DNA from: a virus
Lineage: Duplodnaviria > Caudoviricetes
Length of the DNA: 35,412 nt
Direction: 5' to 3' (one strand)
Virus record (IMG/VR): IMGVR_UViG_3300038520_000506
Coordinates: 1 to 35,412 of that record
Position numbers and translations under genes: made by a program. The notes beneath the pieces were generated by a model. That model had not been told where the DNA came from. It did not search any database and worked only from the letters and a program-made list of their open reading frames with translations. Each line of letters begins with the position of its first letter. Within the stretch, counting starts at the first letter, position 1. Positions 3,209 to 23,339 of this stretch are shown here, in pieces.

Positions 3209-3228
3209 AAAAGTTAGATGGAACTTTT
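3209..3228. promoter_or_regulatory. Palindromic operator-like site
   Basis: aaaagttagatggaactttt between a GC hairpin (3229-3250) and the SD. Confidence 0.6.
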
Positions 3229-4616: not shown

Positions 4617-4657
4617 GCTTTGTCTCCCAAAAGAAGAGGGGGCCAAGGCCCCCATGA

Positions 4658-5347
4658 TTAGAATTGATCGACAACGTCGTTGACGATCTCGTTTTCCTCA
4701 GCGACCTTGTCTTTGGCCTTGGCTGAGGCCTCAGCAGCAGCGGCGCGCTGTTCCTTCAACTCGCGCACCTTGTCGTCAAACAGACGCCATTGCTCTTCAT
4801 CAAAGTCTGAATTGTCGAAGCCGCCGTCTGCCCTCGGCTTGCCGATCAGCTTCTGTGCCAGCTTGGTCACCTCGCAGACACCCTTGTCCTGCTTGACATA
4901 GGCGGCCAGCTTGGCCTCGCTGGTGATGCCTTCAGAGGCAAAGGCTGCCCTGATGGCGTCCGGCGTCAGGTTGGATGACTTTTCCCACTCAAACTTGACG
5001 ACAGCCTTCATGCTGTTTTCATAACGCTTCTTGCCGACAGACTGGCTGTAGGTTGGGCCGTCGTTATCGTTCATCAGAGCGTCTTTGATGTGATTGCCAT
5101 TGTCGGACAGCTTGCCTTTCCTGATGTTGGTGTCAGGGTCTGTTTTGACGTTGGGCTTCTGGGCAATGACCAGCGGGATGATCTCGGCGTACTGATCAAT
5201 CACAAGGCCATTCTGAGCCTCACCCAGAACCTTCTTGTTTTCCTTGGCGGCCTTCTCTTGGCCGTGCAGAGATACCAGCTTGGTCAGGGTATCGTTTGCG
5301 TTGATGGCGTTATCGACGAGGGTTTGTGCGTTGGTTTTTTTAGGCAT
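4658..5347 (-). CDS. Hypothetical phage protein (229 aa, C-terminal coiled coil)
   Basis: Start MPKKTN at 5347 with GGGAGA SD; the track's extension to 5440 runs through the ribozyme. Confidence 0.75.
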   Translation of the reverse strand: MPKKTNAQTLVDNAINANDTLTKLVSLHGQEKAAKENKKVLGEAQNGLVIDQYAEIIPLVIAQKPNVKTDPDTNIRKGKLSDNGNHIKDALMNDNDGPTYSQSVGKKRYENSMKAVVKFEWEKSSNLTPDAIRAAFASEGITSEAKLAAYVKQDKGVCEVTKLAQKLIGKPRADGGFDNSDFDEEQWRLFDDKVRELKEQRAAAAEASAKAKDKVAEENEIVNDVVDQF

Positions 5348-5369: not shown

Positions 5370-5440
5370 GTGTTTCGCCCATGCTTGGGCCAAGGCCGCA
5401 CCATGCGGCTCATCAGTACGCCAGCGTCAGGCGTAGACAC
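5370..5440 (-). ncRNA. Type III hammerhead ribozyme with extended stem II
   Basis: GUGUC^UACGCC-UGACGCU-GGCGUA-CUGAUGA-G...C-GAAACAC: intact core, GUC triplet, stems I and III perfect; predicted cut between 5436 and 5435. Confidence 0.85.
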
Positions 5441-5459
5441 GGGGCCGAGGCCCCAGTGG

Positions 5460-5693
5460 TTAGATTGCGTGATATTCGGTCAGGCGCAGGGTGCCTTGCT
5501 TGACCAGCTTGTCACCTTCTAGCGTGTAGTACGCATGGAATTTGCGGCCCTTGTAGATGGCATACATGACGTTGTCATAGCCAAACGTGGCGTCATGCTT
5601 GGCGATATATTCGCCCAGCGCCTTCAGTGTAGGCTTGAGCGGATAAAGCGTGATCTTGTCTGAACCAGCCTTGAGGCCGTTTGCTGAATACAT
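5460..5693 (-). CDS. Small hypothetical protein (77 aa)
   Basis: AGGAG SD; lies between the two hammerheads. Confidence 0.7.
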   Translation of the reverse strand: MYSANGLKAGSDKITLYPLKPTLKALGEYIAKHDATFGYDNVMYAIYKGRKFHAYYTLEGDKLVKQGTLRLTEYHAI

Positions 5694-5704
5694 GTGGCAG
5701 TCTC

Positions 5705-5908
5705 CTACTGGCTGAACTCAAAGCGTTGATTGAAATAGGCAGGGTTGTCAGACTTGGCGATGGCCGCCTTGACATCATCGACATAGACACGCCCGACAAG
5801 GCACATCTCCAAGCCGAGGTATGTCGGGATCAGGCCCATGTTGGTCAGGGTCTGGATCGCGTCCTGTCTGTCAGGCGTCATCTTGTCGTCTGCAATTTTT
5901 CTAGCCAT
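5705..5908 (-). CDS. Small hypothetical protein (67 aa), first ORF of the leftward operon
   Basis: AGGAGG SD at 5914-5919. Confidence 0.7.
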   Translation of the reverse strand: MARKIADDKMTPDRQDAIQTLTNMGLIPTYLGLEMCLVGRVYVDDVKAAIAKSDNPAYFNQRFEFSQ

Positions 5909-5916
5909 GCAGGCCT

Positions 5917-5966
5917 CCTGTTTCGCGGTGTCTCTTCAGGCATGGGTACCAATCCCATGCGACAGG
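5917..5966 (-). ncRNA. Type III hammerhead ribozyme with minimal stem II
   Basis: CCUGUC^GCAUGGG-AUUGGUA-CCCAUGC-CUGAAGA-G-ACACCG-C-GAAACAGG; loop I GGU complementary to loop II ACC; predicted cut between 5961 and 5960. Confidence 0.88.
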
Positions 5967-6243
5967 TGCGCGGCCATCACCACCGCGCATTAGTCTCTGC
6001 CAGCCCAGCCCCAACCCCGCAACGCGACGCCGAAAGATGTAACTGACATATTGTTGAGTGCCGTACAGAAACTGACCAGAATGGAAAGGCCAGAAACTTG
6101 ACACTCGTTATCGGCGTATCTGATCTGCAAAAGCTGATCGCGTGTCGCACAAGGGCTGGGGTGATTACCAACCTACCGTAGGCTTTGCCAATCAGGGGCT
6201 GACAGGGGTGATCCCCAGTCAATCTGCATTAGCAGATGACTTA
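5967..6243 (-). ncRNA. Large multi-stem structured RNA, family unknown
   Basis: Nested helices 5997-6006/6196-6205, 6009-6018/6152-6161, 6022-6027/6138-6143, 6028-6033/6111-6116, 6056-6062/6100-6106; mismatches resolve as G-U on the minus strand. Confidence 0.65.
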
Positions 6244-6251
6244 CAAAGGTG

Positions 6252-6279
6252 GTTATACAGGAGTAAACGATTGGGACAA
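6252..6279 (-). promoter_or_regulatory. Putative sigma70-type leftward promoter
   Basis: TTGTCC-N16-TATAAC with upstream A-tracts (6301-6324), immediately 5' of the structured RNA. Confidence 0.45.
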
Positions 6280-6461
6280 CCCTTTTATTGCCATCTATGA
6301 TCATTTTTTTTCATTTATTTTCATATCTGGTCTGTAACCTAGGCTGGAAGCTAAAAACGCCGTTAGCATCTTTTTGGTAGTAAACCACCGGAAAACACCT
6401 AAAGCCGCTGTGCGGGCTTCCTAGGGCGATCTAGGGCATGTTGAGGTTTTGGGGTGCGGGG

Positions 6462-6479
6462 AAAGTTATCGGTAACTTT
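6462..6479. promoter_or_regulatory. Palindromic operator-like site upstream of terS
   Basis: aaagttatcggtaacttt. Confidence 0.6.
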
Positions 6480-7380: not shown

Positions 7381-7398
7381 AAAAGTTCCATGTAACTT
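7381..7398. promoter_or_regulatory. Palindromic operator-like site
   Basis: aaaagttccatgtaactt; reverse complement resembles the 1206 and 3209 copies. Confidence 0.5.
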
Positions 7399-8074
7399 AC
7401 TCATCCTCTGCATAGAGGTTATTGAAGATCTGAGTTGTGTCTAAGGTGTAGTCCAGATCTGACTTTGAGTAGTGGATATGCTGCGATGGCAGGAAGTCTG
7501 GTGCGCCTTCGCCTGTTTCAAACCACGCTGGATGTGTCACTCTCACGCGGTTGTTGGGCAATGCGATGATGTTGCCTGTCCACTTTCCTGCATCCAGAAG
7601 CTCCATGACATGGCTTTGCTTGTGCTGTGCGGGGTCATCTGCCACTTCGCTGTCAGTGTAGTCTACCGTGAAGAGATACTTGGCGGGGTAGAAGTCGCTG
7701 TCCACTTTTGCCAACCAAGGACAAGGTGTGGCCCGATTGAGTGTGTAGACGGAGTGGGTGTGTGACATGCAATCCCATGGCTGGGCGTAGTGGACTGGCA
7801 TCGGCTCTGGCCAATCTTCAAAGGGGGTGTCCCCCACTAAAGCGGTGATGGGCATTCTGGCCCACATGGCCCCACCATGCACATTCGGCTCATCTTCGTC
7901 GTCCGATTCACAGCCTGTGAATATCACCTGAAAACTCAAACACCGATTAGGCATCGTGGTCACTGCAATACACATCGCATGCAGAAACTCACCGTGATAC
8001 CTCATGTGATTACATGTGTACTCACGCCTGACCCAACATTTGAAGTGATTTATGTTGCTCTGTAAAAAAGGCAT
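7397..8074 (-). CDS. Hypothetical phage protein (225 aa), opposite strand within the packaging region
   Basis: GGGAGA SD; globular composition rich in Trp, His and Cys. Confidence 0.8.
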   Translation of the reverse strand: MPFLQSNINHFKCWVRREYTCNHMRYHGEFLHAMCIAVTTMPNRCLSFQVIFTGCESDDEDEPNVHGGAMWARMPITALVGDTPFEDWPEPMPVHYAQPWDCMSHTHSVYTLNRATPCPWLAKVDSDFYPAKYLFTVDYTDSEVADDPAQHKQSHVMELLDAGKWTGNIIALPNNRVRVTHPAWFETGEGAPDFLPSQHIHYSKSDLDYTLDTTQIFNNLYAEDE

Positions 8075-8179
8075 CTTTGTCTCCCAAGCCCTTTAATTAA
8101 TACATTATAATACATTAGTCATATCTATTAAAATATATATATATTATAATATAAGGGCTTTAACTGTCAGAAAGGAAAA

Positions 8180-8428
8180 ATGATGTTAAAAGCGTTTATG
8201 AAGACCTTCTTTCCTAGCTTGGTTCAAGGAGAACCCGAAAGGGCTAGGGATGAAAAAGGGAGACTTGTGGGAGACGATAAGAAAACACCTACCTTCAATG
8301 AAGCATGGGTTGGTGGCAAGGCTCCCCCAAAAAAGCGGGGACGACCCAAGAAGGTGGTTGAGGCAAGTGCAAACCTTACCCCACCCAAGAGAAAGAGAGG
8401 CCGACCCAGAAAGGTGGACGCCGCATAA
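8180..8428 (+). CDS. Small basic protein with two AT-hook-like motifs
   Basis: KKRGRPKK and RKRGRPRK; AAGGA SD. Confidence 0.7.
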   Translation: MMLKAFMKTFFPSLVQGEPERARDEKGRLVGDDKKTPTFNEAWVGGKAPPKKRGRPKKVVEASANLTPPKRKRGRPRKVDAA

Positions 8429-16076: not shown

Positions 16077-16094
16077 AAAGTTACCTGTAACTTT
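16077..16094. promoter_or_regulatory. Palindromic operator-like site after the capsid gene
   Basis: aaagttacctgtaacttt. Confidence 0.55.
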
Positions 16095-16139: not shown

Positions 16140-16199
16140 GTGTATACTTTCCAAGTCCCTGACAGCGAAAGCTGACACTAGCCAAGACAGGAGTACGAA

Positions 16200-16682
16200 A
16201 TGGCTAATACCACGTTCAACGGACCAGTCCGTTCTGAGAATGGTTTCAAGACCATTATCAAAAACGCTACGACAGGCGCTCTCACGAATGAGATGACCCT
16301 GTCCACATACAGCACTTCCATCACCATCGCGGCTTCCGGCACTGATCATAAAGAGTCGTCAATCGGTATCCCGTCCAACTTTATCCCTATGGGTGTTGCC
16401 ATTACGGTAACCAGCGCAGCGGCTAACAATGTGAACTTGGTTGACATTGGAACAGACGCTGACACAGATGGCTTTGTTGACGGCATCTCTGTTGCTATCA
16501 ACGCCACTGGCTTCAAGGGCTTCTTCCCTTGCAATGGTGTGCTTGGCATGTCTGGTGGTGCGACTACTGCTGCCACAGAGACTGCTGATGAGGTCGAGGT
16601 TGTAATCTCAGGCGCAGCAGGTGCTGGCGGCGTTATTGCTCTCAAGTTCTTCGGTATCGCATCCGACTCTCCGACTGCTTAG
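16200..16682 (+). CDS. Putative virion structural protein
   Basis: MANTTFNGPVRSENGF; A/G/T-rich; AGGAG SD. Confidence 0.75.
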   Translation: MANTTFNGPVRSENGFKTIIKNATTGALTNEMTLSTYSTSITIAASGTDHKESSIGIPSNFIPMGVAITVTSAAANNVNLVDIGTDADTDGFVDGISVAINATGFKGFFPCNGVLGMSGGATTAATETADEVEVVISGAAGAGGVIALKFFGIASDSPTA

Positions 16683-22665: not shown

Positions 22666-23339
22666 TGTCGTTCACTTACGCGCAACTCAAGACAGCCATT
22701 CAGGATTTCACTGAAAACACGGAAACGTCATTCGTGACGAATCTGCCTGTGTTCATCAGGTCGGCTGAGGAGCGCATACTCAAGTCCGTGGATTTGGACA
22801 ACTTTAGAAAGAACGCAACATCTGCGACGACTAATGGAGATGAGTACATATCCATGCCATCTGATTTTTTGGCACCGTTCTCATTCTTCATCAGCACCGT
22901 TGGTTCTGAGGGCTTTCTTTTAGAGAAGGATGTGAACTTCATCAGAGAGGCATACCCCAACAGAGCCACTACAGCCCTGCCAAAATACTACGGCATATTC
23001 GATGCAAAGGCTGATGCCAGCGGAAATGTTACCGGTAACTTTATTCTTGGCCCAACGCCCAACTCAAACTATGCAGTTGAGTTGCATTACTTTTATAGAC
23101 CGGCCAGTCTTACATCAGGGTCTGATTCAAGCTATAGTTGGCTGAGTGACAACGCGCCAAACGCTTTATTGTACGCCTCAATAATAGAGGCATATACATA
23201 CATGAAGGGCGAGACAGATCTGATCCAGTTGTACGAGGGACGATATGCGGAGAGTCTGGGCAGACTAAAAGACCTAGCTGAGGCTCGTGAAAATGACGAC
23301 GCTTACAGGCAGGGATTGCCTAGAATGCCACGGACATAA
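22665..23339 (+). CDS. Putative head-tail adaptor / tail tubular protein
   Basis: TYAQLKTAIQDF, GPTP...Y.VELHY, WLSDNAPNALLY. Confidence 0.7.
   Translation: MSFTYAQLKTAIQDFTENTETSFVTNLPVFIRSAEERILKSVDLDNFRKNATSATTNGDEYISMPSDFLAPFSFFISTVGSEGFLLEKDVNFIREAYPNRATTALPKYYGIFDAKADASGNVTGNFILGPTPNSNYAVELHYFYRPASLTSGSDSSYSWLSDNAPNALLYASIIEAYTYMKGETDLIQLYEGRYAESLGRLKDLAEARENDDAYRQGLPRMPRT

Follow-up and report, generated by a model that had tools for sequence, protein, structure and literature searches.

Two hammerhead ribozyme motifs, HH1 and HH2, are found on the minus strand of the window (the whole 35,412-base virus record that was analysed), behind a predicted early promoter and a folded non-coding leader. 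A hammerhead of either type III or type I lies upstream of one gene family, that of a 229-aa protein, in all 36 distinct upstream regions compared. Taking the explanation as a whole, we think it likely that the ribozymes divide the early transcript into insulated units with hairpin caps and set the leader free.

The minus-strand operon diverges from about position 6245, and packaging and head genes are found on the plus strand from 6571. In a packaging-gene comparison, made without a tree, the terminase showed 57% identity with that of Pelagibacter phage HTVC027P and 52% with that of HTVC023P, suggesting an HTVC023P-like marine phage. Its host may be an alphaproteobacterium. The sequencing runs holding the stretch are marine (at least 20 among the matches listed, two of them RNA runs with a share of 0.06); the four that were examined consisted of contigs. 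The region was not returned from cultured phages by a sequence search, which gave only two 34-base matches (E 0.6). The features of the locus are collected in Table 1; the coordinates of its small parts were read off the sequence ruler and the folding output.

Table 1 Features of the ribozyme locus and of the genes behind it, in the order of the predicted transcript
Feature	Position	Strand	Remarks
Predicted sigma-70-type early promoter	6252..6326	minus	AT-rich upstream stretch; -35 at 6279-6274, -10 at 6257-6252
Leader non-coding RNA, family A long form	5961..6245	minus	About 285 nt; z -4.96; no Rfam family
Family A core	6052..6240	minus	5' hairpins 6240-6218 and 6216-6205; helix 6173-6168/6159-6154 with 8-nt loop; stem 6106-6100/6062-6056
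Extra strand, about 54 nt	5993..6046	minus	Pairs back on three core segments to give a rod; in 5/16 family A members
GC-rich hairpin	5967..5989	minus	Just 5' of the predicted HH1 cut; two-sided changes in 2/8 pairs, 96.8% paired
HH1, type III hammerhead	5917..5966	minus	Predicted cut 5961/5960; stems I/II/III of 7/1/4 bp
Shine-Dalgarno-like AGGAGG of the 67-aa ORF	5914..5919	minus	Overlaps the 3' strand of HH1 stem III
67-aa ORF	5705..5908	minus	No Pfam or PHROG family; accessory
77-aa ORF	5460..5693	minus	No Pfam or PHROG family; accessory
GC hairpin	5441..5454	minus	Between the 77-aa ORF stop codon and HH2; from sequence and fold; like hairpins in relatives
HH2, type III hammerhead	5370..5440	minus	Predicted cut 5436/5435; stems I/II/III of 6/3/3 bp
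229-aa protein gene	4658..5347	minus	Mostly helical; first gene after HH2
Terminator-like hairpin with U-rich tail	4630..4653	minus	Follows the 229-aa gene; hairpin 4653-4638
WYL_2 Sm-like gene	4616-4326	minus	Accessory
MoxR-like AAA ATPase gene	4294-3257	minus	
DUF2201 peptidase/VWA gene	3196-2051	minus	PHROG label 'HNH endonuclease'

The promoter-like site that the original prediction had placed ahead of the leader is present in the sequence: TTGTCC and TATAAC are separated by a 16-nt spacer, the second hexamer lacking the last T, and transcription is predicted to start near 6245. It was missed, however, by a strict consensus scan, which returned one site, on the other strand, against 2.6 expected, and for this reason the site taken alone is no more than chance would give. 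A similar site stands upstream of the leaders of relatives, a comparison made without a control. The final T of the -10 hexamer is absent from the best candidate in 32 of 38 leader regions, an uncontrolled count in that a best score is always returned, and some of the candidates lie at implausible distances. The missing T agrees with the available text of a study of alphaproteobacterial promoters, in which the T at -7 is commonly missing (PMC7703639).

Two further observations concern possible regulatory sites elsewhere in the window. An 18-bp palindrome occurs at six places (1207-1224, 3210-3227, 6462-6479, 7382-7399, 16077-16094 and 23025-23042), one of them preceding the small terminase gene and another following the capsid gene, and gives 12 strand matches against 0.2 expected for a pattern that was itself drawn from two of the six sites; these are likely to be operator or late-activator sites. 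The stretch 8051-8200, between the divergent gene 8074-7397 and the gene at 8180, is very AT-rich (21-23% G+C) and is possibly a promoter or origin region.

A hammerhead descriptor was run on both strands of the whole window and gave exactly two matches, both of type III and both on the minus strand, at the same places where two complete hammerheads and their cuts had been predicted from reading the sequence. Among 60 dinucleotide shuffles there was no match in 56, one in four and two in none. The piece between the predicted cuts is 525 nt long and holds both the 67-aa and the 77-aa open reading frames (ORFs), again as had been claimed. Folding restricted to nested pairs, which can score neither a pseudoknot nor a hammerhead core, gave stem III a low probability in context (0.007 for HH1 and 0.03 for HH2). 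Contigs of relatives from two RNA libraries of one study span both cut positions; as these contigs extend over the region behind the promoter as well, they may come from DNA.

In a comparison with Rfam, one ribozyme was matched below threshold and the other was missed. HH2 matched RF00008 at E 0.0012 with 28.7 bits, where the gathering score is 48.5, and in relatives it reached up to 42.8 bits, again short of gathering. HH1 of the window matched no hammerhead model at E values up to 10, and two of its relatives scored 32.2 and 27.1 bits against RF00008. Scores below gathering lower the case for membership of RF00008 but not that for a hammerhead.

In the window the core of HH1 is canonical (C3 U4 G5 A6 N7 G8 A9, G12 A13 A14 A15, U16 H17) with stem III open, stem II is a single, invariant G-C pair, and loop I (5953-5947) forms a pseudoknot with loop II (5931-5926). 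Pattern searches brought in 20 stretches from viruses and 92 from metagenomes. Of the latter, 48 were scored as complete and 44 were dropped as not being full hammerheads, three with a longer core insert being recovered later. Across 31 distinct sequences 96.9% of the cells are paired and two-sided changes are seen in 6 of the 17 pairs, located in stems I and III, the shuffles of this pairing being ones that do not control for relatedness. The fourth pair of the pseudoknot is kept in 33 of 33 sequences (C-G in 12, G-C in 18, G-U in two and A-U in one), against a mean of 17.2 in shuffles, none of 5000 being as high; the first pair is broken in 15 of the 33, the window among them.

One or two extra bases at the start of the core, in some cases with C3 changed, are found in nine of the 33 and may slow cleavage. 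In the variants of this kind from L004, L005, L059, L065, L100 and L115, the stems and pseudoknot are kept and some have U for C3. Because the parser missed some of these core-insertion variants (e.g. L004, L006, L062 and L092), its counts are subsets. On this comparative evidence HH1 behaves as a compact, conserved ribozyme family that Rfam misses. Distant viral contigs hold arrays of type II hammerheads (one match in L027 and three each in L035 and L038), accompanied in L027 and L038 by an HH1-type ribozyme.

In 28 of 33 distinct HH1 a Shine-Dalgarno-like motif overlaps stem III on its 3' side and is suitably spaced from a start codon, a share that is inflated because the metagenome search pattern fixed the 5' strand of stem III; four of the five exceptions carry other stem III sequences. 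The distance from HH1 to HH2 ranges from 302 to 994 nt across six contexts, with differing ORFs in between.

That related loci should conserve the ribozymes held true in part: the stems covary, and HH2, complete in its core and three stems, is present in all nine loci fetched by protein, but HH1 is absent from three of the six locus types so fetched. Stem I of HH2 is 100% paired in 11 sequences, with two-sided changes in five of its six pairs. Loop-loop pairing of 3-4 bp is possible in HH2, without covariation because the bases are invariant. The stem II loop has 27 nt in the window against 8-11 nt in other members. When the HH2 pattern was run on the genome collection, 11 of the 12 matches were not full HH2. 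In a Rhizobiales bacterium genome (L152:4001-6340) a near-identical, short-loop HH2 starts a cluster of four hammerheads (III, II, I, I), which sits among small ORFs beside a gene resembling a phage terminase. In the record of L010 a hammerhead-like core, and the core only, lies about 0.9 kb downstream of HH2 (G003:C1:22736-22767).

The original prediction had the second cut release a WYL-like/AAA/VWA message. Instead, the 229-aa gene comes first in that message and has a terminator-like hairpin behind it; a like hairpin and tail come after the gene in L001, L002, L004, L005, L007 and L008. The WYL-like gene, which had been taken for the first gene after HH2, is accessory, with homologues in only five distinct contexts. 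The 229-aa protein has 17 near and 35 profile homologues. It matched no Pfam family at cut-off and no PHROG, and the 15 of the 35 profile homologues that were scanned matched no Pfam family. Its structure model (pLDDT 64) gave no PDB match with Foldseek and one uncharacterised viral protein, and only unnamed viral clusters in the ESM Atlas.

Homologues of the 229-aa protein occur in 66 fetched loci, which have 36 distinct upstream regions (two being shorter re-fetches of the same contigs). A relaxed detector found a hammerhead in 34 of the 36, 20 of type III and 14 of type I, and scored in none of 1000 shuffled controls. The remaining two regions (L037 and L077) have an HH1-type ribozyme directly before the homologue and no two-gene middle piece. 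Hammerhead patterns had been used to fetch some of the loci, but the HH2 pattern brought in none of the 14 with type I. The position is conserved and the topology is not, and no other observation speaks more strongly for selection acting on the cut. One type I family lies less than 130 nt upstream of the homologue in L031, L032, L043, L048, L051, L059 and eight further contexts; its members carry an additional base behind the core, and their loop II apparently forms a pseudoknot with the 3' tail. The ORF after the hammerhead of L023 showed no similarity to the 229-aa profile.

Between the two ribozymes, the two-gene middle piece is, from comparison of the loci, a variable cassette that is missing from some relatives. 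Homologues of the 67-aa ORF, at about 41% identity, were found in two distinct loci. The 77-aa ORF has 16 homologues, and comparison with three relatives gave 19:5, 6:2 and 14:6 synonymous to other codon changes, a coding-type divergence with which it behaves as a real gene; its protein had no match in the ESM Atlas. Twelve cassette and neighbouring ORFs and three distant homologues gave PHROGs of unknown function or no match. The GC hairpin that follows the 77-aa ORF would cap the 3' end of the 525-nt piece.

The leader had been described as a highly paired RNA. The region 6240-5961 does fold at -122.3 kcal/mol, far below shuffles (none of 200 was as low), but the rod so obtained is not the conserved fold of the family. 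What the original prediction missed is that the leader is a swappable module, and that the rod is an alternative to a conserved core fold. Motif tagging divided 49 distinct leaders into families, whose names were coined in the present analysis: A (13), B (8), C (7), D (4), E alone (1) and F (13), with three unassigned. The slot between promoter and ribozyme holds at least six dissimilar families of about 130-400 nt, none of them in Rfam, and a non-coding stretch is retained in it in every leader examined. The modules recombine, family E being found inside or behind family A cores.

A search of the window's leader against Rfam (RAGATH, riboswitches, group I intron, RNase P, tRNA, 6S and GOLLD/ROOL) gave no family match, the sole match being one of 35 nt to GlsR9 (E 2.1), and the leaders of relatives gave none in six loci at E up to 1 and none in 17 loci at E up to 2. 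Likenesses to a group I intron, RNase P, c-di-GMP and cobalamin riboswitches, HDV, twister and tRNA that had been noticed by eye were rejected, as they had no Rfam support. A model of family A found no new members of the family in 48 sources. It matched family D leaders weakly and within the slot (E 0.002, 0.54 and 4.4), which is a hint, from sequence, of shared ancestry and nothing more. Exact matches to the family A motif numbered none in the bacterial and archaeal genome collection and six in viral contigs, and the best other match of the leader inside the window covers 15 of 16 bases (E 0.48). Neither a partner nor a target for the leader came to light in these comparisons; antisense silencing of a host gene was rejected for lack of support, an exact pattern being a weak test of it.

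Three observations on the families are added here. Bearing on antisense silencing, an insert of L005 and L008 reads as an open frame on the other strand, but its four differences are C/U transitions compatible with G-U pairing, and by eye its motifs recur in family E. In family B leaders (e.g. L034) a segment about 230 nt before the HH1 cut resembles stem I and loop II of HH1 by eye, with the core absent; it may be what is left of a ribozyme, put to new use as a structural module. The Rfam Mu-gpT-DE RNA is matched above gathering (49.9 bits) at 16157-16202 on the plus strand, downstream of the major capsid gene; like stem III of HH1, the stem that closes it overlaps a ribosome-binding site, that of the next gene, and by eye it has an 8-base stretch in common with the family F leaders.

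Family A has 16 distinct complete members: five long, eight short and three with an E-type 3' half. In 12 sequences of the core, 98.7% of the cells are paired with two-sided changes in 8 of 46 pairs, the structure having been drawn from the same alignment as was tested and one of five measures not being above shuffles. Compensatory changes are seen at two pairs of the helix 6173-6154, in one case in a long form. The predicted probability of this helix is 0.98 in the 5' part of the leader and 0.0 in the full leader. The loss is also seen in three of the four other long forms, L005 showing only the rod, and the short form L065 likewise loses the helix at full length. The minimum-energy rod was rejected as the fold of family A, the extra strand being confined to a minority of members and the rod excluding the covarying helix. 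By this modelling the rod is thermodynamically real but is the minority fold, and possibly a later one.

Two mutually exclusive folds, predicted in the window and in three of the four other long forms, could mean that the leader works in cis and is not a trans product: as a switch or timer based on its fold, it would gate HH1 cleavage and hence translation of the first ORF. The compensatory pairs of the core helix fit this, as do the predicted pairing of three bases at 5994-5992 with the GUC site in the rod state and the covering of the ribosome-binding site by HH1 stem III. Such a switch is nevertheless unlikely: the extra strand is absent from 11 of the 16 family A members, the same HH1 follows unrelated leaders, some leaders have no hammerhead after them, and no ligand-binding family was matched.

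Strong folding is not general among the leaders. Of 18 that were folded, only four gave z below -2.5, all family A long forms, and the other 14 ranged from -1.4 to +1.6. The way in which the leader ends also varies. Among the six locus types fetched by protein it ends in HH1 in three and in a GC hairpin with a U-rich tail in the other three (L001, the L002 type and L008); the family A leader of L142 is closed by a type I hammerhead. On release, the window's leader would have its 3' end capped by the GC-rich hairpin that stands just before the HH1 cut.

It is distinctly unlikely that only the cut before the 229-aa gene matters, with HH1 and the leader dispensable and the leader a folded 5' spacer arising from recombination. 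The constancy of a hammerhead before that gene, the absence of HH1 from half of the locus types and its tolerance of core insertions would fit such an account, as would the many leaders that fold no better than shuffles and the family B segment that looks like a core-less HH1. On the other side, the stems and pseudoknot of HH1 covary, as does the family A core, the slot always retains a non-coding stretch, and in L142 a second ribozyme type replaces HH1.

The put RNA of phage HK022 is a nascent RNA behind an early promoter that confers read-through of terminators. The leader, which lies directly behind the predicted early promoter, might work in the same manner, modifying host RNA polymerase and so letting it read through the hairpins of the operon before the hammerhead discards the leader. 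Terminator-like hairpins are indeed present in the operon, one of them right at the leader end in three locus types. At least six dissimilar leader families are, however, hard to square with one polymerase binding site, an early cut would sever the tether, and a literature search gave nothing bearing on this phage, and we regard antitermination as very unlikely.

In the mechanism that we favour, segmentation by the ribozymes, host RNA polymerase would start near 6245, and the two cuts would give the leader, the 525-nt two-gene piece and a message starting with the 229-aa gene. The self-segmentation proposed in the original prediction draws good comparative support from the covarying stems, the HH1 pseudoknot and the hammerhead in all 36 distinct regions upstream of the 229-aa family, cleavage itself remaining predicted from sequence. 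Hammerhead cleavage leaves a 5'-OH and a 2',3'-cyclic phosphate. After each cut the upstream piece would end in a GC hairpin, a few bases and the cyclic phosphate, a terminator-like end, and the downstream message would begin with the 5'-OH and the stem I hairpin. Whether a 5'-OH stabilises or destabilises a message is a matter of RNase E against RNase J. Cutting by HH1 would in addition free the ribosome-binding site of the first ORF from the strand that covers it. The ribozymes would act as natural insulators, the 5' end of the 229-aa message being fixed regardless of the upstream sequence, and leaders and small genes could be exchanged without cross-folding. Most copies of the 229-aa message would probably end at 4630, and read-through would give access to the AAA and VWA genes.

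A different fate for the 525-nt piece, circularisation by reverse hammerhead ligation or by a host RtcB-type ligase, is highly improbable. The piece would carry 5'-OH and cyclic-phosphate ends, and UGUC stands before both cuts, so that its ends could form a hybrid hammerhead with a 3-bp stem III. By eye, relatives with a type I hammerhead in second place could not form that hybrid, and in the available text of Perreault 2011 circular and spliced products were sought and none was found (PMC3088659).

Once segmentation had released it as a free RNA, the leader may act in trans on a host factor. This is the weakest step of the mechanism and a tentative one, to which we give somewhat less than an even chance; it is favoured because the leader diversifies like the adjoining accessory genes and has its 3' end defined in two ways. 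A further step, and a rather unlikely one, would make the slot a locus for swappable RNA effector genes, the first product of these phages being a ribozyme-matured, rapidly diversifying folded RNA directed against a host defence or expression factor, with the built-in antisense strand of the window's leader refolding it once made and timing its activity.

According to the available text of a review, the purpose of phage self-cleaving ribozymes is still undefined (PMC6765202), and ribozymes are described as enriched near phage genes in what is available of two other papers (PMC5737381, PMC10085705). The present locus makes testable the question of why phages carry them, since its natural variants, with two ribozymes, with one, or with a hairpin replacing the first, are ready-made comparisons. 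It also yields an uncatalogued leader RNA family and several others in the same place. Should the leaders prove to act in trans, they would form a new class of RNA effectors in phages. No description of the leader families, of the topology swap before one gene or of the HH1 family was found in the literature, although Weinberg 2015 and Dataset S1 of Perreault may list them.

Several known systems resemble parts of the locus. With RF00008 (Hammerhead_3) the ribozymes share type III topology, the canonical core and the GUC site; unlike members of that family, HH2 falls below the 48.5-bit gathering score and HH1 of the window is unscored. RAGATH RNAs are, in the available text, structured RNAs near ribozyme-associated genes, 33 of them of no known function, and are, as here, folded RNAs found near hammerheads (PMC11061315). 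Unlike them, no leader scanned matched a RAGATH model of Rfam. No TnpB or other nuclease annotation was found among 15 window proteins scanned, apart from the 'HNH endonuclease' label on the DUF2201/VWA protein. The RiboJ insulator, so far as the source at hand describes it, is alike in principle, a hammerhead before the ribosome-binding site normalising the 5' end of the message (PMC7536230). RiboJ is engineered and discards its leader, whereas the leader here is conserved and folded, and the analogy is offered with that reserve.

In the HHphage ribozyme of haloviruses HF1 and HF2, the 5' end of the early transcript was mapped in vivo to within 3 nt of the cleavage site, and the hammerhead lies, as here, a few bases before a start codon, in that case of the first ORF of the early transcript (PMC3088659, in the part available). 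Its function was still called open in 2020 (PMC7230728, likewise in part). HHphage differs from the present case in belonging to an archaeal virus and in being one ribozyme before a helicase, with no leader family described in the available text of these two papers (PMC3088659, PMC7230728).

The closest likeness is to the prophage clusters of Perreault 2011, and the concept is less new than the original prediction implied: in the available text of that paper, prophage hammerheads flank variable gene blocks and three arrays are cleaved during transcription (PMC3088659). As here, several hammerheads share one strand and surround short gene blocks of inconstant content, they are proposed to process transcripts to mRNAs the length of an operon or a gene, and a short stem II with a pseudoknot and core variants are found; a type II hammerhead with a 1-bp stem II and a pseudoknot makes more than 1.2 cuts per minute (PMC3088659). 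With cleavage of such arrays in print, the present locus would appear to work like a known kind, whose one defining feature it shares. Unlike those clusters, so far as they are described in the part of the paper available, the array here starts behind a predicted promoter and a 130-400 nt leader drawn from at least six families, one gene family is always preceded by a ribozyme of either topology, and stem III of HH1 overlaps a ribosome-binding site.
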